Shown here in pieces: positions 14,488 to 61,515 of a DNA stretch of 64,000 bases (within the stretch, counting starts at the first letter, position 1; each line of letters opens with the position of its first letter). Source of the DNA: a virus (lineage: Duplodnaviria; Heunggongvirae; Uroviricota; Caudoviricetes); the IMG/VR virus record IMGVR_UViG_3300037512_000782, positions 60,732-124,731 of that record, one strand, 5' to 3'. The notes under the pieces were generated by a model. The model was not told the DNA's origin. It worked only from the letters and a program-made list of their open reading frames with translations, and ran no database searches. The position numbers and the translations under genes are program-made.

Positions 14488-17400
14488 TTACATGTCCATG
14501 AAGTCCAGATCAGCCGCATCATACTCTTGAGCTTGCTGGACGACTGGAGCCGCCGCGCTAGCTTTCCGCTTCTTCGGACGCTTCTGCTTCATCGGCATAG
14601 AATCAATCATTTCATCGCCAGTCAATTCTGGTTCTGGATTTGCCTTCGGTTTCGGAGTCGGCTTTGGCTTAGGTTCCTTGACCTTTGCTGGCTTAGCTGG
14701 AACATTCGCATGTGGTTTTGGCTTTGGTGTTCCATTGGATTTGCCACCAAATGTACGTTCGGTTCCATCCGCACCAACTACGGTACTGGTAGGTTCCTCA
14801 TTATCGCCATCGACGTCGTCGATATTTTCCTCGTCAACATCAACAGTTTCTGCACCATTAGACGAATGACCCTTACGGCTAACATCACGAATGTCATACG
14901 AAACGCGATTACCAGTAGCCATGTTAGTGTAGAGCTGCTTGAACTTAGCCAACACGGTTTCGGCAAACTTCGGATCATTAACATCGATGTCACGAGGCAC
15001 TGACGAATAGCACAGCGCGTCAAACATACGGTCAGTCATCGAGCCAAGACGGCACTTAACAAGTCCGTCGTCACGGCTGACATTATATGCCTTGCTGATA
15101 ATGCCGACGGCGGCATCCAACAAATCACTCTTAACCGCACGAGACTCATCGGCCCTTTCTTTATCGACGGCAGAAATCATAGCGTCATATTCTTCACTAG
15201 AGATACCGCCAGTCAACGCATCAACAGAAATCTTGAAGCCGTGAACTGGGCCACGCTTATCCATAGCAGCCGACAAGCACAGAGCATCGTAGGCTGGAAT
15301 TGTAAACCAACCCAAATTGGTGCGAACCATGTCGCCATACGGCTTCACGTCAAACGACTTTGCGATAGCATTGGTTGCATTAGATACAGCCACGGAATCA
15401 ATGTTATCCAACTGCGAAGTACGTTCAAGAAGCTCAATGAAGGCATCGAATCGTACGCCAGTAGAATAGAACATCAAGGCGGTGTTAAACGCATCGCATT
15501 CGTCATACGCCTTGATCTTGTGGTTGATCTCAATCGACATCATGACGATATAGCGGAACGTATTCTTGTCAAGCGACATTCCCGGATACTTCAAGTGTAC
15601 CATAGCGCCGTTGTACTCGACAATGCCGTCATCGCGAAGCGCTTTAATAACGCTGTTCACGTCGGAAGCATTTGTCGGCATCGTTACGGCATAGTAAGGA
15701 TTCATGCGCAAGTGGCCAACACGCTTCCTTGCCGCCTCGCTAGGCATTACACCAGCGAACGACAAGATGTTGCCACCCTTCTTGAGGGTTTCCATGAACT
15801 GCTGCTTCAGTTCAACCGCACGTTGCGCCCAAGTCTTGTCATCGTCCATACCATTGACGACGGCATTGAACAAGCGATTGATAGTATCCTTTCTCGCCGT
15901 ACTGGTATCGCCCCACAAGCCAGTCGGCACACCAGTACTCGTTTCGATTCTCAACGTATCGTTGATAATCCGAACGACTTCGGCATATTTCGGATTGGCC
16001 ATCATCTGCTGCTGGGCCTTTTCATTCTGGCAATACGCTTCGACACATGACAGCAATTCATTCGGCGTAAGTTCTTCCGGAATCTTAGAAATGATATCAG
16101 CAAACTGGTCAACCCAGTCATAGTCGACACGAGACTGTTCGCCAGATACACGCTGCGGATATGCATTGGTTTCACCGGATACCATACTCATCGTATCGAA
16201 ATCCATATCGACTTCATTTTTCAACGAGTCGCTTACGTAGCTCATGACATTAGCACGACCAGCACGTTGACCAAGGGACGTGCTTACCGTGATGACGGCA
16301 GAAATCGGAGTTTCCATGTCATCGCAGATTCGGTACAAAGACTTGATGGCTTCTGCAAGGAGTTCGGTAGCAGAATTCTTGTAATCACTGTTGAAGTTGA
16401 CTTCGCCCAATTCGTCCACCGCACCATACGTATTCACGAGCTTGTTAAATACGTTCATGCGAAGGTCATGCGCCAGCGATGCCATGTCGTCGTCCTTATA
16501 CACATGCTGCGCGTCGCCGAACACAAGTTCAGAAATCGTCACCGCATCTATACCAGAGCCAGTACCTGGGGCAACCTTAGATCCCTTATCATTAAATGCC
16601 AAGGCAACGCTACGTTGGTCATTGACAATTTTATCTGCAGTACCGACCGAGCCACCATGCATCAACGAATAGGATCCGATATCCGTACCATTCTTGGCGG
16701 CAGCATACACACTGGCCAATGTCGGATAATTCTTATCACCCTTGCGCTCATCATCCATCAAGGCACTGAGCAATTCACGCTGCAGATCATTACTGCACAA
16801 GCCCTTCGCAAAGAGCAAGGAGCCCTTCAACGAAGACAAGGTAGAATGGAATACACGCTTTTCAAGTTCGTTAGCGGACACTCGCTCGTCACGCATGATT
16901 CGATCATACGTATTGAACGCCTTACCAAGCATATAGGCATACTTGGACAGTTCCATGTTTTCCGCCAAGTCAGCCTTGACATACGGCAAGTACGCCATAC
17001 GAGCCTTGGCTTCCTTGGTATCGGTCTTACCAGTAGCGGTACTTTCCTTGGCAGTGTCCTTGTCGCCAGCACGAAGTAAGGAACGAGCGAACGAATCGGT
17101 AGCCTTTCCATACTTATCAGACGGCGACGCCGGAGAATCAACCTTGTTCATTCCACGAAGAATCGGCAGCTCGGCATTTCCTTCAAGACGATCCAAGAAC
17201 TTATCGCCGATGTCGGTAATAACTTTCACGATATTCGTAAATAGCTGTTCTGGATCGGAATCCGCCTTGACGCTGTTGTAGGCATAATCGACCAGTCGAA
17301 GAGACAGCGGGTTCTTACTGAACTTCTCGACAGTATTACGCACGTTAGCCAACACATCAAGCAACTCATTGTATTGCGTTTCAGCTGGCTTTGTCAAGTA

Positions 17401-20400
17401 GTTCGTCAAAACATACACAAGCTGAGCCATTACACTTTCATCGCTGCTCGTATAAGCGAACATACGCTTCACGGCAACTCCGTTATTACGGGCGGCTGCG
17501 GCATCGTCGTTAGACGCATAGTGTACAAGTTCATTGAGCGCGTTGACGGCGATCGAATAATCCTTCAATACGGTCTTCATCTGGTCAAGCGTAACTTCAT
17601 CGTTCACCATAGCATACAGCAATCCTTGATATTCTGGATGCTGTGAAATCAAGTTGTTGATTTCATCTTCCGATGCATCAAGCTGCTTCTGCGACTGTTC
17701 CATTCGCGTCAAGCACTTCGCCGCATGCTTACGATAACCCAGCTTTACATTCGGATGGCCGATATAGAACTTGACCCAATCAGCAGTATCCCAGTTGTCA
17801 GACTCTTGCGGAGCATCCGGAAGATTCATAGCATCAGTCATGTAATCGCCAAGTTCAGACGAAGATTCAGAATGAGTCGTCGCGGCACCTTGGTACTTAC
17901 TGAAAACTTGAATCACAGACTTGAGGCCATCGACAGATTCTTCGGCAACATCGCTAGACGGAACGATATCAGTCTGCGCATTGTCTGCGTCGAGCTCGGC
18001 TGTTTGAAGCTTGGCATTCAACTCGTTCTGCGGTGCCATTGCATTTAGTTCAGCAAGACTCTTCTCGCCGCCTTCTGGAATATCATAAGTCGGCGGAATT
18101 GCAGATGCACTTTCCGGTTCTTCGACATTGAGCTGCTGACCAGCATCCAGCAAGGTTTTCATCACTCGGACATATTGGTCAAATTGGTTGATACGCAGCT
18201 TTTTCAAAGCAGTCATGTTAGCGATCGAATTACCCGGCATCGTATTCGCAATGGCGTTCACCACGGCAAGGATATCGCGAGTAGACAAGTCGCTAGTATT
18301 CACGGCGTCATTCAGTCGTGAACGCAATGTTTTCAAGGATGCCAGCTCCGGATTGTCCGTTAGCGAATTAGTCATCGAGTCGGCAAGCTTACTCAAATCG
18401 TCGACCGCATTCTCGCGATCAGCAATCAAGATTTTGCATGCATTGATAATCTTGACAGAGTTCTCCGGCTTCTTCGCTTCGGCGGTCTTGTTTGCCGCAT
18501 TCGAAATGCTATCGAATAGCGCATTCACTTCGGCGCTAACTTCGCGATAATTAGCTGGATAGAGCTGCTGCACAATCGGAGCAACTGGCGAGTCCTTATG
18601 CGAATATGCATAGCGCACAAGACGGTCGGACATCCTTACGTAATCATGCAAAACGGTAAGAAGGAGCCACGGCATATTACCAGCGCTATACAAGCGAGCA
18701 TCCTTATAGGTGCTAACCACATCGCAAAGCACGGTGATAAGTGCAGAGTCTGCACTTTCAACCATTGCACCACTCATTTTAGAAACGAAACCATTGATCG
18801 CTTCGGACTTACCCGATACCAAGGTCATTAGCTTCGGCGCATAGTTGTAAACGGTTTCAACCGAAGCCGAATAGCGTCCGCCGACGCTGTTCGCAAATTC
18901 ACTGACAGCCTTAGTCACGTTACTACAAAGCACACGAGTCTTTGTCAGAAGTTCAGACAAGTTAGTTCCTTGAGAACGCTTGTACACACTATCGGCCAAC
19001 AACGTACGCTCCTTCAGCGAAGCGCCTTGCGGAATCAAGTGCGTATACACGAGCTTGTCTACAAATTTCGAATTGCTCAATGCCATCGTAGCTTTCGCAT
19101 GCTGGCTAGTCTTGGTATCCTTAACGACATTGGAAGTCGCGTCGATATCAAGCAACTTGTTTACCAACGGCGACACTCTCTCGGAGTCGTCCATATTGCC
19201 ATTCTTCAAGTACGAGTATGACTTGAGACCTTGAAGCATAACCCAAGATGGGTTTTCAGAAATTCGGACTGGAACCAACCCAGAGCTGATGTAGTCCTTG
19301 TAGTGGTTACGAATTTCCATTCGAGGAATCGTATCGACTACACCAGAGGTGCCAGTAATACTATCGTCATAACCGACAACGAGTTCTTCGTTCTCTGGAT
19401 CATACCTAAACAATTTCGTAGTCGCAAGACCAGCCGCAGTCAAACCTTCCTTCTTCTTACGGTCATTTGTGCTTTCCGTACTAAAGATAGCGACGGCGCT
19501 AGGCATCTTGACGGCGTTAATCGAAGTGCCGTCAACAGTCTTACCGGATACAGAGTTACCGCCAACAAAAATGATATTCTTGGCCACAGAGTCAAGCGCA
19601 TCGCGGATCGCCTCGACGGTTTCTCCATCGACTTCATGCAATCCAAGACGAGAGCAGAACTTCGCGAAATCTTGGTCATACACATCGTTCTGTTTCGGAC
19701 GGCTATCAAGCGCATCGTAGTATTCTCGCAGCATACCAGCAAGTTGAGTATGCAATCCGATTGCCGTATCAGTGCTAGTCGCGATGGAAGCAATTCGATC
19801 ACAGAACTCATCAGCAAAGTCAGCTGCAGACGCAGCGTCGACTGGATCCGTAGACATCGGCATGCCGACATCCTCGAACATCATTTGTAACACGCGATAC
19901 ACCAGCTTCGAAGTCAGTCCGTTGTACTTCAAATGACGCAAGAACTCAACAGAGAATACCTTGATATAAGTCTCGCAAGTACAACCAGTCTTATCGTTGA
20001 GCACATTAGATTGAGACGTCTCGTCACCGATAGTGCTCATATCTTTTTCGATATAATCGCCAGAATTAATTTCATCGCGGTCATTGACTTTAGCATTATC
20101 GTCAATTTCATCCAGCGAATCCGTCATTGACGACAAGTCATATTGAGGCGCATCATCCTTTGTTCTCCAAGCGTTCGCGATCAGATTGTACAACTGGCGC
20201 ACCATGGAATCGTCTGGGTTATACCAATGAGACGGATTTTGCGCATTCGGACTTGAAGGTTTTCCAGCGAAATCCTTACCGTACAAATCACGAGGGATTG
20301 CATAACAAGCAAATAGCAACCAAGCGGCATTTTTGGCATCTTCTTCGCTAACGCTCTTCGAAATTCCAGTAACTTTCAAGATTGACTGGACGGTTTCATA

Positions 20401-20934
20401 AATCTTATTGATCTTTCCAGCAACGACACCAAGCATACTGTCAACCGTATTGCTGGCAGCATAATCTTGTGACAACGGCGTATGACGGCGAGTCGGGGTC
20501 AGATTGTAAATAGTATCCTTGATGACTTTCGCAAACTTAGTGCCAATCTTCTTGAACGGGTTAGTCTGGCCAACTTCGTTCTGGCGATCGATCAATCTCT
20601 TCATAACGGCAGAGGCATGCTTGAACATACTTTCGTCCGCCAAGTTCTTCAAGTACACAGCCAACGGATGCACTACAGACGCCATCTCGTAAATATAACG
20701 ACGGCGAGAATCTGGCCTCGTATTGTCACGAAGACCGCTGTTCCAACCGCCATCCTTCTCGACCATGTCGGCAACCACATCAAGAACAGCGCCGACTTCC
20801 TTATCGAGCTTGTAATTAGCCCACGACAATTCGTATTTAGTATTATCGTCGCCTTGAAGCTCCTGAACTAGACCATAGAGTTCAGACAGTTCTGATGAAG
20901 TACTAACCACGTTTTCAAGCAATGCTTCGGCCAT
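14488..20934 (-). CDS. very large hypothetical protein (about 2150 aa), probably virion-associated
   Basis: uninterrupted ORF (track start 20943; ATG 20934 has a GGGTG RBS); late motif at 20963-20970; Lys/Pro-rich C-terminus. Confidence 0.85.
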   Translation of the reverse strand: MAEALLENVVSTSSELSELYGLVQELQGDDNTKYELSWANYKLDKEVGAVLDVVADMVEKDGGWNSGLRDNTRPDSRRRYIYEMASVVHPLAVYLKNLADESMFKHASAVMKRLIDRQNEVGQTNPFKKIGTKFAKVIKDTIYNLTPTRRHTPLSQDYAASNTVDSMLGVVAGKINKIYETVQSILKVTGISKSVSEEDAKNAAWLLFACYAIPRDLYGKDFAGKPSSPNAQNPSHWYNPDDSMVRQLYNLIANAWRTKDDAPQYDLSSMTDSLDEIDDNAKVNDRDEINSGDYIEKDMSTIGDETSQSNVLNDKTGCTCETYIKVFSVEFLRHLKYNGLTSKLVYRVLQMMFEDVGMPMSTDPVDAASAADFADEFCDRIASIATSTDTAIGLHTQLAGMLREYYDALDSRPKQNDVYDQDFAKFCSRLGLHEVDGETVEAIRDALDSVAKNIIFVGGNSVSGKTVDGTSINAVKMPSAVAIFSTESTNDRKKKEGLTAAGLATTKLFRYDPENEELVVGYDDSITGTSGVVDTIPRMEIRNHYKDYISSGLVPVRISENPSWVMLQGLKSYSYLKNGNMDDSERVSPLVNKLLDIDATSNVVKDTKTSQHAKATMALSNSKFVDKLVYTHLIPQGASLKERTLLADSVYKRSQGTNLSELLTKTRVLCSNVTKAVSEFANSVGGRYSASVETVYNYAPKLMTLVSGKSEAINGFVSKMSGAMVESADSALITVLCDVVSTYKDARLYSAGNMPWLLLTVLHDYVRMSDRLVRYAYSHKDSPVAPIVQQLYPANYREVSAEVNALFDSISNAANKTAEAKKPENSVKIINACKILIADRENAVDDLSKLADSMTNSLTDNPELASLKTLRSRLNDAVNTSDLSTRDILAVVNAIANTMPGNSIANMTALKKLRINQFDQYVRVMKTLLDAGQQLNVEEPESASAIPPTYDIPEGGEKSLAELNAMAPQNELNAKLQTAELDADNAQTDIVPSSDVAEESVDGLKSVIQVFSKYQGAATTHSESSSELGDYMTDAMNLPDAPQESDNWDTADWVKFYIGHPNVKLGYRKHAAKCLTRMEQSQKQLDASEDEINNLISQHPEYQGLLYAMVNDEVTLDQMKTVLKDYSIAVNALNELVHYASNDDAAAARNNGVAVKRMFAYTSSDESVMAQLVYVLTNYLTKPAETQYNELLDVLANVRNTVEKFSKNPLSLRLVDYAYNSVKADSDPEQLFTNIVKVITDIGDKFLDRLEGNAELPILRGMNKVDSPASPSDKYGKATDSFARSLLRAGDKDTAKESTATGKTDTKEAKARMAYLPYVKADLAENMELSKYAYMLGKAFNTYDRIMRDERVSANELEKRVFHSTLSSLKGSLLFAKGLCSNDLQRELLSALMDDERKGDKNYPTLASVYAAAKNGTDIGSYSLMHGGSVGTADKIVNDQRSVALAFNDKGSKVAPGTGSGIDAVTISELVFGDAQHVYKDDDMASLAHDLRMNVFNKLVNTYGAVDELGEVNFNSDYKNSATELLAEAIKSLYRICDDMETPISAVITVSTSLGQRAGRANVMSYVSDSLKNEVDMDFDTMSMVSGETNAYPQRVSGEQSRVDYDWVDQFADIISKIPEELTPNELLSCVEAYCQNEKAQQQMMANPKYAEVVRIINDTLRIETSTGVPTGLWGDTSTARKDTINRLFNAVVNGMDDDKTWAQRAVELKQQFMETLKKGGNILSFAGVMPSEAARKRVGHLRMNPYYAVTMPTNASDVNSVIKALRDDGIVEYNGAMVHLKYPGMSLDKNTFRYIVMMSIEINHKIKAYDECDAFNTALMFYSTGVRFDAFIELLERTSQLDNIDSVAVSNATNAIAKSFDVKPYGDMVRTNLGWFTIPAYDALCLSAAMDKRGPVHGFKISVDALTGGISSEEYDAMISAVDKERADESRAVKSDLLDAAVGIISKAYNVSRDDGLVKCRLGSMTDRMFDALCYSSVPRDIDVNDPKFAETVLAKFKQLYTNMATGNRVSYDIRDVSRKGHSSNGAETVDVDEENIDDVDGDNEEPTSTVVGADGTERTFGGKSNGTPKPKPHANVPAKPAKVKEPKPKPTPKPKANPEPELTGDEMIDSMPMKQKRPKKRKASAAAPVVQQAQEYDAADLDFMDM

Positions 20935-20962
20935 TGGAATCACCCATATTTAATCGGCAAAT

Positions 20963-32322: not shown

Positions 32323-32354
32323 AGTTATATTTATTGGCGTATATTGAGGAAATT

Positions 32355-34025
32355 ATGGCAGAAACACCAGTAAACGCATTGGTTCGTGTGTCCACGAACA
32401 ATGAACTTGATTTTAACGAATGGCTCGATTACCATATCGCGCTGGGATTTAACCGTATATTTGTCTATGACTCTGGGAACCACGGCTGGCTTCCGGATGC
32501 TTGCCGCAAGCGTGAAGAACATGTCACGCTTGTTCCGCTTGCTGGTAATGACTGGCGCAAGAAGAGCAACATCATCAAGGCTTATGTCGCACAGACTACG
32601 GAACCGTCTTGGGCAGTGTGCCTCGAAGACGACGAATTCATCTGGCTTGACTTGAACGTAAGTCGCTCTATCAGCAGCTTCATCAACAAGTATTTCGGCA
32701 CTGCAGCTTTGGCTATGTCGGTGTACGTGAAGTATCTGTCGTCCGAAAAGCCGATGAAGAACCGTGTCGGCACACTGATCGACTGCTTCCAGCATGCTCG
32801 TCCGAATCCGCAAGGTCTCGTGCATCCGTGCTCGCATACGCCGAACTTCACCTTTACTTTCTTCTACGTTCCAGACAATCGTTGCGTCCCTATGCGCGGC
32901 CCTCTTACTCCGAACACGCAGTATTGGCGTGACTTCAAGGGCACTGTTCTTACGGAAGCTGGCCTTGGCAAGTATCTCACTTCCCAGCAGTACAATCCGG
33001 ACGCCTATCCAGTGCGCGGCTACAAGTATGGCTTGAAGTCTGGTATGGAAATGGGCATGCAGCCTGGAACCAAGCCAGTCGGCTATACCGTCCGTGACAA
33101 CACCATGATCAACGAACGCGCCGCCTTGCTGCAAATTCCGGTCAACGAGGCTACCGAAGAACTGTTCGCCAAGGACGAACTTCTCGTGGAACAGCCGACG
33201 TTGCCGAAGCGCGAAATTTCTCCAGAAGAAGCTGCGGAACTCGAATTGCCGATTCCTCTTGGTAAGATCGACACCTTCATCCTTTATGGCTATCCGCTTG
33301 AACATGTCATCGACTTCGCTGTCAAGAACGGCTACGAAGATACTCCGGAACACCGCACGGTGGTCGAGCGCGTGTATCGTCGCGAATGTTCAATGATTAT
33401 CGAGTCGACTCCGGTCTACAAGCGTCTCGCCGAACTTGAAGCCGAAGGTGGCCGCACCGACGACATGATCTGTGCCGAACTCAAGATCAGCTACCCGGCC
33501 CTCTTGAAGATGCGCAAGTGCATGTCAGTGCTGAACATCAATGAACACGAAGCCAAAAAGGCAGATGCTGAAGCTGCTGCAGTCGAAACTGACAATGCGC
33601 AAGCGAAGGCTGTCGTCGAAAGTTCCGACATGGCCGAACTCACCAAGCAGTTTGACGAGACCGTCAATGCCCATCCGATTTCCAAGGAAGACGAGAAGCG
33701 CTTTGACGACAAGGTCGAGGAACAGAAGGCCAAGCGCCGCGAACGCGCAAAGAAGGCTCGTGAAAAGAAGAAGGCCAACCAAGAAGCCAAGAAGGCTGCC
33801 GAGGCTACCGAGGATGAAACTCTGCTGAGTGGCGATATCAAGATTTATAAAGATATCTATGCTGATGCGAGCTACGCATTGATTGGTAAGGCATCCGACA
33901 AGGCATCCGACAAGGAACCGCCTAAAGAGTCCGAAAAGAAGGAAGACGATGTCGAACTCGACCTTGGTGATACTAACCTTCTGAACAATACCGACCTTTC
34001 CGCATTTGGTAATATAGATGCATAA
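32355..34025 (+). CDS. glycosyltransferase-like protein (GT-A, GT2/GT92-like N-terminus) with charged C-terminal tail containing a capsid-like peptide
   Basis: EWLDYHIALGFNRIFVYDSG and WAVCLEDDEFI motifs; GAGGA RBS supports ATG 32355. Confidence 0.7.
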   Translation: MAETPVNALVRVSTNNELDFNEWLDYHIALGFNRIFVYDSGNHGWLPDACRKREEHVTLVPLAGNDWRKKSNIIKAYVAQTTEPSWAVCLEDDEFIWLDLNVSRSISSFINKYFGTAALAMSVYVKYLSSEKPMKNRVGTLIDCFQHARPNPQGLVHPCSHTPNFTFTFFYVPDNRCVPMRGPLTPNTQYWRDFKGTVLTEAGLGKYLTSQQYNPDAYPVRGYKYGLKSGMEMGMQPGTKPVGYTVRDNTMINERAALLQIPVNEATEELFAKDELLVEQPTLPKREISPEEAAELELPIPLGKIDTFILYGYPLEHVIDFAVKNGYEDTPEHRTVVERVYRRECSMIIESTPVYKRLAELEAEGGRTDDMICAELKISYPALLKMRKCMSVLNINEHEAKKADAEAAAVETDNAQAKAVVESSDMAELTKQFDETVNAHPISKEDEKRFDDKVEEQKAKRRERAKKAREKKKANQEAKKAAEATEDETLLSGDIKIYKDIYADASYALIGKASDKASDKEPPKESEKKEDDVELDLGDTNLLNNTDLSAFGNIDA

Positions 34026-47676: not shown

Positions 47677-49377
47677 ATGCTAGTTAAGAAGAACAAAGAA
47701 AACGACAATATAGCCACAAGGCTCCTTAGCCATGTGAGGGATTACGGTCAGGCGAACGAGCGCGGTGCCATTTTCGACCGAGTGTTCAACCGTGGTGACG
47801 TTGTTCGTCAGATTCGCGCTTCACGTAACGTGGTCGGCCAAGGCATCAACCAGATGCTCTCTCCGGACGGTTCCGCCGTCGACGGATTCAGCATGTACAT
47901 GCCAGCGCTCGGTATCAGCGGTTCGAACAAGATCGATCCGGACAAGATACAGAACGCGATTGCCGAGAACCAAGCCCAGCTATACTGGAAGAAGAACCAA
48001 GAACGCGCTCGCAAGTACGACACGGTCGCATCTCGTTCTGAAGTGAACGAGTCCTTAATACAGATCTGTAACGAGGCCGTGTACAAGGACGACGTGGACG
48101 AAATCTGCTCGCTCGACATCGACCATGACGCCGCTATCGGCGATCCTGTGCGCAAGAAGCTCGGCAAGATATTCCGTCAGACGGTTCTCCGCCGCATCAT
48201 GAAGTTCCACCAAGACGGCTGGGAGTACATGAAGTACCTCTTGACTCGTGGCCGTATCTTCTTTGAAGTTATCTACGATCCCAATACTGGCAATATCGAA
48301 GGCGTGAACATGCTGCCGGAAGAGCACATGATCATCGTCGTTCAGGACAACTTGATTATCGGCTATCGCCAGATGCTTACTGGTACGATGGCCTCGCAGA
48401 ATAACGGCAAGAATTATATCGATTTCTCGCCGAACCAGATTCTGTACGCATCCCTCGGCATGACTGGCCCCGGCGGCGTCAATGACCCTCGTTCCATCTT
48501 GGAACCAGCGATGAAGCCGTACAACCAATTGAATACGATTGAAGACTCCGTCGTGATGTACCGTGTCCTCTGGGGTTCAGAAAAGCTTGTTCTAAAGGTT
48601 GACGTGTCTGGTATGACGAAGGCTACTGCCGAGAAGTTCATGAAAGACCAAGCGAAGATGTTCTCTCGTCGTCTCGATTACAACTCGATGACTGGTGAAG
48701 TGACCAACTTCGGTACGTCACCTGGCCTTACCGAACACTTCATCATCGGTGTGGGTAACGGTCGTACTGGTTCCAGCATTGAACGTATGCAAGGCGGTGC
48801 CGAGCTTGGAAACATCGATGACTTGAAGTTCTTCAAGCGCAACTTGGTGAACTCCTTGATGGTTCCGCCGGGACGTATCACCGCTTTGGCTGGCGACTCC
48901 CAGAATTACTCACAAGGTAAGATCGGTGAAGTCACTCAGGCCGAAGTCTCGTTTGCTCGCCTCGTGCAGCGCTATCAGACTCCGTTCGAGACGATTCTTA
49001 TTCGTCTGTTCGTGATGGTGCTGAATACTGACAACACGATCGACGACTCTATCAAGCTGCAAGAGTTCTATACAGTGCGCTTCCGCAAGTCCAACGGTTT
49101 CCAGAACTTCATCGACTCCGAAGTTTGGACGACGAAGCTCGCCGTGTTCGACTCGATGATGAAGCACGTGTCCTCGAAGGAAAATCCGAACGGCGCTCTC
49201 TCGAAGCAAGCCGCGTTGCGCTGGGGTCTGCGTCTCAACGACGAACAGTACAACCTCAACAAGGCTTGGTGCAAAGAAGAGAAGGCCGAAGAATCTGGCG
49301 AAGCTACTGGCGACGAAGGCGGTGGCGAAGCCTCTGGCGGCGCACCGGATGCTGGTGGCGGAATGCCTGGAATGTAG
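47677..49377 (+). CDS. gp20: portal protein (T4 gp20-like)
   Basis: LEPAMKPYNQLNTIEDSVVMYR, VDVSGM, LGNIDDLKFFKRNL..SLMVPPGR, EVSFARLVQR. Confidence 0.93.
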   Translation: MLVKKNKENDNIATRLLSHVRDYGQANERGAIFDRVFNRGDVVRQIRASRNVVGQGINQMLSPDGSAVDGFSMYMPALGISGSNKIDPDKIQNAIAENQAQLYWKKNQERARKYDTVASRSEVNESLIQICNEAVYKDDVDEICSLDIDHDAAIGDPVRKKLGKIFRQTVLRRIMKFHQDGWEYMKYLLTRGRIFFEVIYDPNTGNIEGVNMLPEEHMIIVVQDNLIIGYRQMLTGTMASQNNGKNYIDFSPNQILYASLGMTGPGGVNDPRSILEPAMKPYNQLNTIEDSVVMYRVLWGSEKLVLKVDVSGMTKATAEKFMKDQAKMFSRRLDYNSMTGEVTNFGTSPGLTEHFIIGVGNGRTGSSIERMQGGAELGNIDDLKFFKRNLVNSLMVPPGRITALAGDSQNYSQGKIGEVTQAEVSFARLVQRYQTPFETILIRLFVMVLNTDNTIDDSIKLQEFYTVRFRKSNGFQNFIDSEVWTTKLAVFDSMMKHVSSKENPNGALSKQAALRWGLRLNDEQYNLNKAWCKEEKAEESGEATGDEGGGEASGGAPDAGGGMPGM

Positions 49378-49381
49378 TGTT

Positions 49382-49407
49382 AAAGGTGGTCATTCGACCA
49401 CCTTTTT
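49382..49407 (+). terminator. intrinsic terminator
   Basis: AAAGGTGGTC-ATTC-GACCACCTTTTT. Confidence 0.8.
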
Positions 49408-49534
49408 CATTTCAATGTAGGTTTTTGGCACTTTTTTCACGGCGTTTTTTGAGACCCCTAAACATTATAACAAGAAACGCCTATCAGAGTAGTACCGCTG
49501 GTGCTGCCGAGAAGGCACAACAGAAGGACTACTT

Positions 49535-51028
49535 ATGCAGACTCTTCAGAAAAAGAACCTCTCGAATAAGTGGCGCACCATTCTTGAATCCAACCTTGGT
49601 CGTCCTATTCGTACTCGCGCTGAAGCCAGCGTGATTGCTACCTTGCTGGAAAACCAGAACAAGGTTAACCGTGGCGCTATGCTTGAATCTGCCAACGTCT
49701 CCGCTGACGTTGCTCAATATCAGCAGTACGCTCTCCCGATGATCCGTCGTCAGTTCCCGGAACTGCTCGCCATGAACACGGTGACTGTGATTCCGACAAC
49801 GACTCCGCAGGGCATCTATTTTGCTCTTCGTTATCTTTATGATAACGAACCGCTCAAGACCACTGCATTCCGTCGCGGTCAGAAGCAAGAAATTGGCTAC
49901 GATCTCGTAGCTGACCACACTGGTTTCGCTGGCACTTTCAACCCGTGGACTACTGGCCGTGGTGAAATGTTGTCCAACTACATGGAAGGTACTGGTGTTA
50001 ACGGTGCTTCCGCTAACGGCAACACTTTCGATCCAGAAGAACCGGGTCTCCTCTACAACAACTTTGGTGGCTCTTACCTCGCTGGCAACGACCAGTACGG
50101 TGACCTCTCCTTCAACATCAAGAAGGCTTCCATCAAGGTGATCAGCGGTGCCATCCGTGTTGGTACTCGCGCCATCAAGTCTCACTACACGATCGAATTG
50201 CAGCAAGATATGGCTGCTGCTCATGGTCAGGACGTTGAAGCCCTTCTCCTCGAAGGTCTCCAGTTTGAGATCCAGCAGAACATCGACCGTGAAATCCTCC
50301 AGGCCATGGTGCTTGTTGCTCAGACTCCGGCTCTCGGTGGTGAAGCAGCAATCCAGATGGACTTGGCTGACAAGAACATCCTCAACGCTGGTATGGGCCG
50401 CTGGGCCGCAGAACGTATCGCTGGTGGTATCGTGAATACTATCATCGCCGTATCTCGCAAGATCGCTCTTACGACTCGTATGGGCTGCGGTAACTTCGCA
50501 ATCATCTCCCCGGATATTGCTGCTGCTGTCGCAACTCTCAACAACGGTATCTATACGCCGACTTACCTCCAGACCGACGCTGCTGTGCAGCCGAGTGGTG
50601 GTGTGGCCGACGCTGGTAGCCTCTTGAATGGCAACATCAAGCTGTATCAGGACATCTACGCTCAGGCTTCTTACGCCCTCATCGGTTACAAGGGCCCGCG
50701 TCAGGGTGAGTCTGGTATCATCATGATGCCTTACATCCCATATATCTTCTGTAAGACCGCTGGTCAGGAAGATGGTTCTCCGCGTCTCATTGTCAAGTCT
50801 CGTTACGCCATTGTTGCGAACTTGCTCGGCGCTGGTCAGTTCTACCGTGTCATCCACTTCTCCAACGTCAACACTGTTATCACTGGCATCGACCTTGATA
50901 ACATGCCGTGGCAGTCTAACGGTTCGCTCGCTGGTGCTTCGCTCCAGGCTGGCCTCTCTTACGAGACTGTTCCGAATGGCGTGGTGAACGTGCCGGGTGG
51001 CCTCTCTTACGAAGACAACAACTGGTAA
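49535..51028 (+). CDS. gp23: major capsid protein (T4 gp23-like)
   Basis: LLENQ, PMIRRQFPELLA, GIYFALR, TRAIKSHYTIELQQDMAAAHGQDVE, IDREI, MPYIP, KSRYAIVAN. Confidence 0.96.
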   Translation: MQTLQKKNLSNKWRTILESNLGRPIRTRAEASVIATLLENQNKVNRGAMLESANVSADVAQYQQYALPMIRRQFPELLAMNTVTVIPTTTPQGIYFALRYLYDNEPLKTTAFRRGQKQEIGYDLVADHTGFAGTFNPWTTGRGEMLSNYMEGTGVNGASANGNTFDPEEPGLLYNNFGGSYLAGNDQYGDLSFNIKKASIKVISGAIRVGTRAIKSHYTIELQQDMAAAHGQDVEALLLEGLQFEIQQNIDREILQAMVLVAQTPALGGEAAIQMDLADKNILNAGMGRWAAERIAGGIVNTIIAVSRKIALTTRMGCGNFAIISPDIAAAVATLNNGIYTPTYLQTDAAVQPSGGVADAGSLLNGNIKLYQDIYAQASYALIGYKGPRQGESGIIMMPYIPYIFCKTAGQEDGSPRLIVKSRYAIVANLLGAGQFYRVIHFSNVNTVITGIDLDNMPWQSNGSLAGASLQAGLSYETVPNGVVNVPGGLSYEDNNW

Positions 51029-59907: not shown

Positions 59908-61515
59908 ATGACACCATATTATTACGTTCGTGAAGTTGAAAAGATTATGATTGCGTTGATGGACGTATTCAATAATCTGCGTGCCAAGAAATACAAGGAC
60001 ATCTCGCGTACGGCGTCCGACCGTACAGTTGCTGTCCCTATCACGACCCACAGCAGCGCGAACTTCGCAAACTTGGTCGCTTCTACGCAGTCGACGCAAG
60101 AACCGATGCCAGTGCCTATTCTTGGCTTCCGTTATACCGGAAACTCGCATGACCAAGCCAACATGGTGCAGCCGTGCTATGCGCGTGAAATCTACTCGCC
60201 CACGATACAGAAGTTCATCCGTGACATACAGCCGACGCCGCAAGTATTCAAGTTCGAAATGACATTGCTCTGCAACGACATGTCCGACTATCTGCAGATA
60301 AAGGAAAACATCGAAGCCTATTTCAACACGTACCGCACAGTCCGTATCAAGGAGTTCGACTTCATCCCGGAAATAGAGCGACCGATTCCGTTCTCGGTCA
60401 CTTGGACGGATAGTCTCGACGACGAGAAGTCATCGGACAGCAAGGAATACCAGTATTACAAGACGACCTACACCATCGAGGCCCATGGCGTCTATCACCG
60501 TAAGTACGAAATTCCGGCGATCATCAAGTACGCCGAAATGAATTTCAACATCAACAACGAACTTATCGACTCGTTGCAAGTGTTCGTGTATCCAGACGAA
60601 ATCGCGCAGCAGAAGAAGCACTTGTGGGAAACCGTCGAGCCTTCGATTCGCGAGGGCTGGTCGCTGCTCAAGACGTTCACTAGGACGCTTGTTCGCAAGA
60701 CGGACGAGGACGGCGACGAATACTGGAAGGATGAGACTCGCAAGAGCTACGACTTGACCTATCACGACGAGAGTGACATTACGAAGCGCAACAAGGTAGG
60801 AAATGTCGTAACTGGCTACAACCCTATTCTGAAGGGTTACAAGCGTGACGATAATGGCAACATCATCAAGGACAAGGACGGCGACCCGATTCCTATTTAC
60901 GACTGGGAAGATATCGTCGTCGGCGACGTGAACCGTCCGCCGGAAGTCCCTTCATTCGACTTGATCCACTTGAACTTTGACGAGGATACTTCTCTGGAGC
61001 ACGACTTCAGCGGACTCAACCGTGACTTCGTCGCGATATCCAGCGAGAAGCGTGAGTTTGTACCAGACATGGCTCCAGGCAACGGCAGCTATGCACCGGA
61101 CGGATACGCTTCCGAGAATACGGACTGGTCGCAGATTCTTAACTGGTTCGGCGACAACAAGGAAGGAAAGATCGAATCTTCCTACACCTTCAAGGCCACG
61201 CTGCAGTTCAAGCACCCAGATGTCGATACGGTGTTCCAGTATCTATACAATCCGAAGGACGTCACTCTGTCCGACGGAACGGTCATCCCGGCGGAAACCG
61301 TTTGGTTCGACTGGGGCATACAAGATCACCGACTCTATTTCACATATCACACATCGTCGCAGTATCACCGCTTCGTGAGCGCAAAGACCGACTTCGACGA
61401 CAAGACAATTTATTCGATCTACTTTGTCCTTTATAACGAAGGACAGAACGGCGCGTTCGGTATTCGTACGAACTTCTCCGACACGATGATCGCTCTGGAA
61501 ACGAAGGAAGTATAA
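59908..61515 (+). CDS. gp15: tail sheath stabiliser/terminator (T4 gp15-like) with C-terminal extension
   Basis: YYVREVEKIMIALMDVFNNL, VAVPI, IQPTPQVFKFEM, QIKENIEAYF; about 300 extra C-terminal residues. Confidence 0.7.
   Translation: MTPYYYVREVEKIMIALMDVFNNLRAKKYKDISRTASDRTVAVPITTHSSANFANLVASTQSTQEPMPVPILGFRYTGNSHDQANMVQPCYAREIYSPTIQKFIRDIQPTPQVFKFEMTLLCNDMSDYLQIKENIEAYFNTYRTVRIKEFDFIPEIERPIPFSVTWTDSLDDEKSSDSKEYQYYKTTYTIEAHGVYHRKYEIPAIIKYAEMNFNINNELIDSLQVFVYPDEIAQQKKHLWETVEPSIREGWSLLKTFTRTLVRKTDEDGDEYWKDETRKSYDLTYHDESDITKRNKVGNVVTGYNPILKGYKRDDNGNIIKDKDGDPIPIYDWEDIVVGDVNRPPEVPSFDLIHLNFDEDTSLEHDFSGLNRDFVAISSEKREFVPDMAPGNGSYAPDGYASENTDWSQILNWFGDNKEGKIESSYTFKATLQFKHPDVDTVFQYLYNPKDVTLSDGTVIPAETVWFDWGIQDHRLYFTYHTSSQYHRFVSAKTDFDDKTIYSIYFVLYNEGQNGAFGIRTNFSDTMIALETKEV

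Follow-up and report, generated by a model that had tools for sequence, protein, structure and literature searches.

We analysed a 64,000-nucleotide stretch of DNA (the window; positions 60,732 to 124,731 of the IMG/VR virus record IMGVR_UViG_3300037512_000782, Caudoviricetes), in which a gene for a glycosyltransferase-like (GT-like) protein carries, within its disordered C-terminal linker, a 22-amino-acid copy of a hairpin of the phage major capsid protein. The segment very probably originated as a captured fragment of a capsid gene. From the way in which it is conserved, exchanged and lost among related phages, we give a probability of about 0.5 to the reading that it would now be a selected, optional beta-hairpin motif mimicking a capsid element, and we favour this over a pure fossil of the capture. 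An earlier note on this DNA, made from the letters alone, had offered three options for the segment, namely a pre-late decoy for a capsid sensor or chaperone, a docking strand that targets the enzyme to proheads, or a captured fragment of the capsid gene of a related phage; the third is the one that fits the data. The genome to which the window belongs measures 348,092 bp (91% complete by CheckV), and 411 open reading frames (ORFs) were called in it.

The 22-mers encoded at window positions 33822-33887 (the GT-like tail) and 50621-50686 (the capsid gene) are identical at 17 of 22 residues with no gaps, which both translations and BLASTP bear out, as the note had claimed; BLASTP of the pair extends the alignment to 17/23 (40.8 bits, E = 8e-8). 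When the 411 ORFs were compared all against all by BLASTP, the tail-capsid pair (E = 1.8e-5) was the sole short match joining otherwise unrelated proteins, and the remaining short matches were N-termini common to paralogue families. When the capsid protein was searched against all six frames of the genome, the capsid gene and the GT-like tail were found, and nothing else. The tail variant closest to the capsid, P0034 (L056), is identical at 19 of 22 residues and differs at positions 5, 10 and 15, in each case by a change to a charged residue. The segment recurs across many independent assemblies (JGI, ENA and Logan samples), therefore an assembly chimera, which the note had named as an outcome that would overturn its idea, is excluded.

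The copy is internal to the linker and ends 45 residues short of the C-terminus. Indels and length variation in this linker were seen in every homologue comparison made, which agrees with the description in the note of a segment interrupting a low-complexity region. The 12-nucleotide (nt) duplication that the note reported directly after the segment was also confirmed; it is private to the window genome and is missing in all eight aligned close relatives.

The donor belongs to the family of T4 gp23-type major capsid proteins (HK97 fold), and comparison of the window's capsid protein with the T4 gp23 structures 6uzc/7vs5 (phmmer E = 6e-29) covers the segment. Capsid residues 362-388 align to T4 gp23 415-441 by HMMER, by which the 22-mer corresponds to gp23 416-437. 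In the capsid model, with a predicted local distance difference test score (pLDDT) of 77-90 over the hairpin region, the 22-mer comprises the end of a strand (357-363), an NGN turn, a second strand (368-373), a loop and a third strand (380-384). Position 5 of the 22-mer, in the turn, corresponds to T4 gp23 K420, and all tail alleles have a derived Asp or Glu there. The gp24-bypass mutation K420R of T4 lies in a loop between neighbouring subunits within the capsomer (PMC9546572). By this alignment, the copied piece includes an intra-capsomer interface element. A gp24-like vertex paralogue is absent from the genome by the six-frame search with the capsid protein (348 kb), therefore the single capsid protein would have to form both pentamers and hexamers; a second, gp24-like capsid paralogue is thereby ruled out as the donor. 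The 22 capsid residues are invariant in 35 loci (15 distinct 66-mers), save for Q/N at position 15 and one I/L. The 66-mers themselves differ at up to 15 positions, and the differences are synonymous outside those two variable residues. Capsid proteins are 88-97% identical among phages with GT-like proteins that are only 45-84% identical.

At the DNA level, the tail copy of the window and its own capsid copy share 46 of 66 nt, and different codons are used at 9 of the 17 identical residues, including Ser AGC versus TCT. This codon count, also made in the earlier note, is correct, and the claim drawn from it, that the segment is not a recent duplication of the genome's own capsid gene, is supported; the codon argument itself is, however, weaker than stated, as comparison of the window copy with the 15 distinct capsid alleles leaves only codons 1, 17 and 19 (3 of the 17 shared residues) that are never used by a capsid gene. 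No sampled capsid allele is closer to the tail copy of the window than 48-50 of 66 nt, and tail copies in general share 41-50 of 66 nt (62-76%) with the 15 capsid 66-mers. A capsid gene with the distinctive residues of the tail was not found in pattern searches of IMG/VR and the JGI metagenomes. No match in IMG/VR was obtained with a back-translated pattern of the first strand in its tail form, the capsid-hairpin pattern with Asp15 of the tail had none in IMG/VR or the JGI metagenomes, and a looser hairpin pattern returned ordinary capsid genes and one further tail of the capsid-like type (allele A, described below), nothing else. The note had reasoned that a peptide absent or decaying in homologues, and nearly identical in DNA to the capsid gene of another phage, would point to a neutral capture. 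The first part was found, the peptide being absent, deleted or decayed in distant and in some close homologues; the second was not, since no near-identical capsid gene turned up and purifying selection was seen.

Explanations at the level of the DNA itself, among them a DNA or RNA element that would account for the near-identity of allele A DNA on different backbones, fared poorly. Mutagenesis of the diversity-generating retroelement type was rejected, as the differences between capsid and tail fall mostly at C and T, without specificity for adenine, and identity is only 62-76%. Neither a sigma-70-like promoter nor a terminator was found in the DNA of allele A, and its RNA structure is no stronger than that of shuffled controls (z = -0.18). 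The late-promoter-like TATAAAGA within allele A was rejected as a promoter because the P0009-type allele destroys it. The DNA of allele A is AT-rich at window positions 33840-33865, with two GATATC sites 12 nt apart on either side of a palindrome, TTTATAAA; this feature, for which no function was found, is missing in the capsid copy and disrupted in one allele.

We compared the GT-like protein with 43 metagenomic homologues of about 34-97% identity, from samples that look to be of rumen or gut origin by their names alone. All homologues retain the GT and helical domains, the basic stretch and the C-terminal motif. The full-length capsid-like segment is confined to homologues at least 76% identical to the window protein. 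Possible remnants are seen at 64-68% identity (types P0028/L006 and P0025/L004), the P0027/P0029 type has lost the insert by deletion, and most homologues at 34-45% identity have unrelated sequence in place of the segment. In the P0036-P0038 group, the corresponding place shows a faint resemblance of the DIKV type, which we regard as unproven.

Two allele classes of the segment were distinguished. Allele A, the capsid-like class, is found in the window, P0003, P0004/5, P0020, P0021, L062 and the P0006-P0018 clade. The B alleles (L025, P0022 and P0019) have Val8 and His13 in common and a remodelled second strand. Both classes are present in each of three backbone lineages, and one contig (L074 and L039) carries the standard capsid hairpin alongside a B tail. 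Synonymous (dS) and nonsynonymous (dN) distances are in sharp disagreement between the peptide and its surroundings. The window differs from P0020, P0021 and P0009 at a backbone dS of 0.8-0.96 and at a dS of 0.6-2.1 in the tail flanks, whereas dS in the peptide is 0 against P0020 and P0021 and 0.2 against P0009. Conversely, the pairs window/L025 (backbone dS 0.24) and P0009/P0019 (backbone dS 0.10) have a peptide dS of at least 1.4 and a dN of 0.43-0.61. One allele A haplotype sits on at least four backbones that differ at a dS of about 0.9. By this pattern of distances, the segment is a short cassette swapped between phage backbones by short-patch recombination, and one allele A haplotype has spread recently across diverged backbones.

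As for the source of the B alleles, the L025-type allele matches the family consensus at 13 of 22 residues, one foreign capsid at 14 of 22 and its own capsid at 10 of 22. An origin of allele B from a foreign T4-like capsid gene is disfavoured though not settled. Since the derived acidic residue at position 5 is common to A and B, and the derived His13 to all B alleles, a single capture followed by divergence is the simpler account; the resemblance to a foreign capsid is left unexplained rather than settled.

Selection on the segment was estimated by Nei-Gojobori counts on 22 codons, as the proportions of synonymous (pS) and nonsynonymous (pN) differences. Comparisons of A with capsid alleles gave a pS of 0.73-0.93 and a pN of 0.10-0.20 (pN/pS 0.13-0.27, p 1e-4 to 2e-8). 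Within class A, the P0034 type against the window type gave a pS of 0.34 and a pN of 0.04 (pN/pS 0.11, p = 0.005). Within class B, L025 against P0019 gave a pS of 0.66 and a pN of 0.19 (pN/pS 0.29, p = 0.001), and L025 against P0022 a pS of 0.87 and a pN of 0.29 (pN/pS 0.34, p = 1e-4). By these counts, both classes are under long-term purifying selection, with pN/pS of 0.1-0.35.

We propose the following course of events. A capsid-gene piece of about 69 nt, from within this phage group, would have been inserted into the disordered C-terminal linker of the GT-like protein, bringing with it the coding sequence of the A-domain strand-turn-strand-loop-strand unit of the capsid protein. The insert is optional to the enzyme, and its present forms behave as an exchangeable cassette that is of type A, of the old and diverged type B, decayed or deleted. 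The hairpin would have been recruited as a short beta-hairpin motif for interaction that mimics a capsid interface element, because its aromatic and hydrophobic residues persist in charged, disordered surroundings even though synonymous change is close to saturation. We infer that the constraint on the peptide reflects binding. Conceivably, the hairpin would bind by strand addition to whatever normally contacts the capsid element, with an adjacent capsid subunit, an intermediate of assembly or a host factor recognising this element as candidate partners. Such a motif would resemble the short linear motifs of viruses, which are likewise short hydrophobic elements able to fold, lie in disordered regions, arise by small insertions, evolve fast and are easily lost. 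It would differ from viral motif mimicry in that the mimicked protein is the virus's own capsid and not a host protein, and in that the capture of the gene fragment is directly traceable.

Several observations weigh against this reading. The motif is dispensable, most of the GT-like family being without it. All of the selection statistics rest on 22-28 codons, and the very strong constraint on the capsid branch itself pulls the pN/pS of A against the capsid downwards; a rough correction, which gives the tail branch half of the synonymous changes, still leaves about 19 replacement changes expected and 5-7 observed. In the P0006-P0018 clade, the ratio of nonsynonymous to synonymous polymorphic codons is 10:2 in the 28 peptide codons versus 27:60 in the other 513 (Fisher p = 7.7e-4). 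The peptide dN of 0.07-0.18 in this clade, against a backbone dS of 0.05-0.14, is at or above the neutral rate, and the linker flanking the peptide is unchanged. The changes mostly drop aromatic or hydrophobic residues (Y13H, Y18D and L20E) and would look like decay, or like 'detoxifying' of an aggregation-prone insert; the clade can be read as a case of either relaxation or diversification. Both strands lie in the A-domain sheet of the folded capsid protein and are not obviously a free epitope. The invariance of the capsid hairpin beside the variability of its copy is awkward if the capsid is the sole partner.

The strongest rival, quite conceivable though the less probable of the two, is that the segment is a neutral or slightly harmful fossil, placed by illegitimate recombination into a permissive linker, functionless, decaying and moved about by mosaic recombination. 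The disorder of the segment, its restriction to one clade with loss or decay elsewhere, the proneness of the linker to indels and duplication, and the P0006-P0018 clade, with a dN/dS ratio (omega) of about 1 or higher and hydrophobic-to-polar changes, are all in keeping with it. Recent exchange is, moreover, not limited to the peptide. Between the window and L003, codons 67-230 (about 160 codons of the GT domain) are nearly free of synonymous differences on a backbone otherwise at a dS of about 0.8; such patches elsewhere in the gene mean that exchange is ordinary and that patchy identity is therefore not peptide-specific. A fossil does not, however, readily account for pN/pS values of 0.1-0.35 (p 1e-3 to 1e-8), both within and between allele classes, at synonymous sites near saturation. 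Nor would it be expected to retain a serine through a codon switch from TCN to AGC, to keep five or six aromatic or aliphatic residues in a highly charged disordered linker, or to occur as one A haplotype on at least four backbones at a dS of about 0.9.

Taking the mimic reading further, the hairpin could be a deliberate mimic of an intra-capsomer element, swappable and kept polymorphic by fluctuating selection, which would act as bait for or blocker of a host sensor of nascent capsid protein, or as a handle tying a replisome-associated enzyme to assembling heads. We regard this fuller version as rather unlikely.

Docking on the capsid as such, in which the hairpin would add onto capsid assembly intermediates and bring the enzyme to proheads for glycosylation or packaging, as the earlier note had suggested, appears improbable. 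The copied element holds the turn equivalent to T4 K420 at the intra-capsomer subunit interface, and in a phage without a gp24-like paralogue this region of the capsid protein would have to serve in the contacts of hexamers and pentamers alike. Against this, the replication/recombination operon, the basic helix and the clamp-tail-like C-terminus of the host protein point to DNA and not to capsids. The capsid site is invariant while the handle varies and is often lost, therefore the fit to lock-and-key docking on the capsid is poor. A complex prediction for the capsid protein with tail residues 470-563 scored 0.00, which is not evidence either way. Head targeting in T4 relies on N-terminal signals, not on an internal hairpin. 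The T4 capsid targeting sequence (of the internal proteins and Alt) is comparable in that a short peptide would link a non-structural or enzymatic protein to head assembly. That sequence stands at the N-terminus, attaches to the scaffold core, is cleaved off by the head protease and does not derive from the capsid protein, whereas the segment described here is found inside a linker close to the C-terminus and reproduces a capsid-protein element literally; it has neither the N-terminal position nor the head-protease site of the T4 sequence.

An anti-defence decoy or trigger, in which the copy would engage a host capsid sensor and either soak it up before late expression or be sensed by it, is in our view very doubtful. 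The precedent for short capsid peptides as immune ligands is the Gol peptide of T4 gp23, which together with EF-Tu activates the Lit protease. As with Gol, a short stretch of a T4-type capsid protein would act alone as a recognition element. Gol, however, lies near the N-terminal part of gp23, at about residues 93-122, and acts inside the capsid protein without being copied elsewhere, whereas the segment here derives from the A domain (gp23 416-437), outside the Gol region. The existence of two old allele classes, the exchange of cassettes and the burst of replacements seen in a single clade also form a pattern of the kind known from arms-race loci. Several defence families sense major capsid proteins, among them Avs7 and Dsr1; Avs-type sensors, as described, recognise folded capsid proteins over extended surfaces, and not a 22-mer (bioRxiv 10.64898/2026.01.04.697583). 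No sensor is known for this particular capsid element, and a decoy should track the invariant capsid sequence, whereas many lineages of the tail drift away from it or have the copy deleted. A phage chaperonin as the shared partner of capsid and tail is ruled out, as neither Cpn60 nor Cpn10 was found in the genome by Pfam search. Finally, chance or convergent similarity, or an assembly artefact, which has the shortness of the match and nothing further in its favour, is effectively refuted already by the E-value of 1.8e-5 against the whole proteome, by the 19/22 identity of the P0034-type allele to the capsid segment and by recurrence of the segment across many independent assemblies and samples.

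The features discussed are collected in Table 1. The start of the host gene was placed by alignment of homologues at the ATG at 32355 (556 amino acids) and not at the upstream TTG at 32334. The gene is flanked by an RNase H/5'-3' exonuclease-like gene on one side and a gp46/SbcC-like gene on the other, and its stop overlaps the start of the gp46-like gene at 34018.

Table 1. Features of the GT-like gene and the capsid gene in the window. Residues of the GT-like protein are numbered on the 563-amino-acid (aa) version counted from TTG 32334.
Feature	Position in window	Strand	Basis
Host gene, GT-A-fold (GT2_4/GT92-like), in uvsW-rnh-gp46 replication/recombination operon	32355..34025	+	ORF list; Pfam PF13704; homologue starts
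N-terminal GT-A fold domain, aa 8-280	32355..33173	+	AlphaFold2 model, Foldseek
Central helical domain plus long charged helices, aa 297-490	33222..33803	+	model secondary structure, alignment
Basic stretch closing the helical domain, aa 465-481	33726-33776	+	model secondary structure, alignment
Disordered, indel-prone linker with insert, aa 492-548	33807..33977	+	pLDDT ~30
22-aa capsid-hairpin copy, allele A, aa 497-518	33822..33887	+	translation, BLASTP, alignments
12-nt tandem duplication, 2 x AAGGCATCCGAC, at 33888-33899 and 33900-33911	33888..33911	+	alignment
Acidic-hydrophobic C-terminal motif, core NLL..x..DLSAF	33951..34022	+	family alignment
Major capsid protein gene, T4 gp23 family, 497 aa	49535..51028	+	Pfam Gp23 E = 8e-63
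Capsid A-domain segment, aa 363-384	50621..50686	+	HMMER alignment, model strands

The host protein falls in the GT-A fold glycosyltransferase family by profile, by fold and by a DxD-type motif, and its activity is predicted from these. The Pfam match to PF13704 (Glyco_tranf_2_4) covers residues 28-117 (E = 1e-9, 39.2 bits versus a cut-off of 27.5). The AlphaFold2 model of residues 8-280 has a pLDDT mostly of 80-97, and its best Foldseek match is GalS1, a GT92 galactan synthase (8d3t, E = 2e-7), followed by nucleotidyl- and glycosyltransferases. The DxD-like motif is EDDEF at residues 98-102, with D99 conserved in at least 90% of 29 homologues; D106 is invariant in the homologue alignment. Searches of GenBank phages with the host protein and its tail (tblastn and blastn) returned no matches, and a sequence search of the PDB with the host family gave nothing useful. 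A ThyA-type thymidylate synthase/hydroxymethylase was not found in the genome by Pfam search, which leaves no support for a hydroxymethyl base as the sugar acceptor of the GT-like enzyme.

The acidic-hydrophobic motif that forms the last ~20 residues is conserved family-wide, in homologues from ~34% to 98% identical. Loosely similar tails of the D-[LF]-x-[FA]-[MF] type end two other proteins of the genome, a 2151-aa protein (window 14488-20943, minus strand) and a putative DNA polymerase, so called from its C-terminus alone (genome 48755-51712, minus strand, outside the window). These may be sliding-clamp docking tails of the kind found in clients of the T4/RB69 gp45 clamp.

Elsewhere in the genome, outside the window (318-328 kb and 176-177 kb), lie about eight small ORFs whose similarity to one another is confined to the first 20-35 residues (55-89% identity); the shared N-termini may be a common tag or propeptide, reminiscent of capsid targeting sequences. 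Close relatives carry a gene of 584-591 aa with Hint/intein-splicing and LAGLIDADG matches between the portal and capsid genes (L025 18479-20254, L026 18636-20390 and L027 18479-20233), where the window has a short gap (49377-49535). An intein or homing element beside the capsid gene is thus carried by only some of these genomes.

Should the copy prove functional, it would be an example of a phage creating an interaction motif by grafting part of its coat protein into the flexible tail of an enzyme with no relation to that protein, a case of self-mimicry instead of mimicry of the host. The allele series, which runs from capsid-like through remodelled to deleted forms, offers natural variants for probing what the A-domain hairpin contacts, be it an adjacent subunit, an assembly factor or one of the capsid-sensing immune proteins that are now recognised as common. 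If the copy is a fossil, it would be a cleanly dated case of the capture of a gene fragment and its decay in a disordered linker, and even then it records recombination over very short patches between jumbo phages that circulate together.

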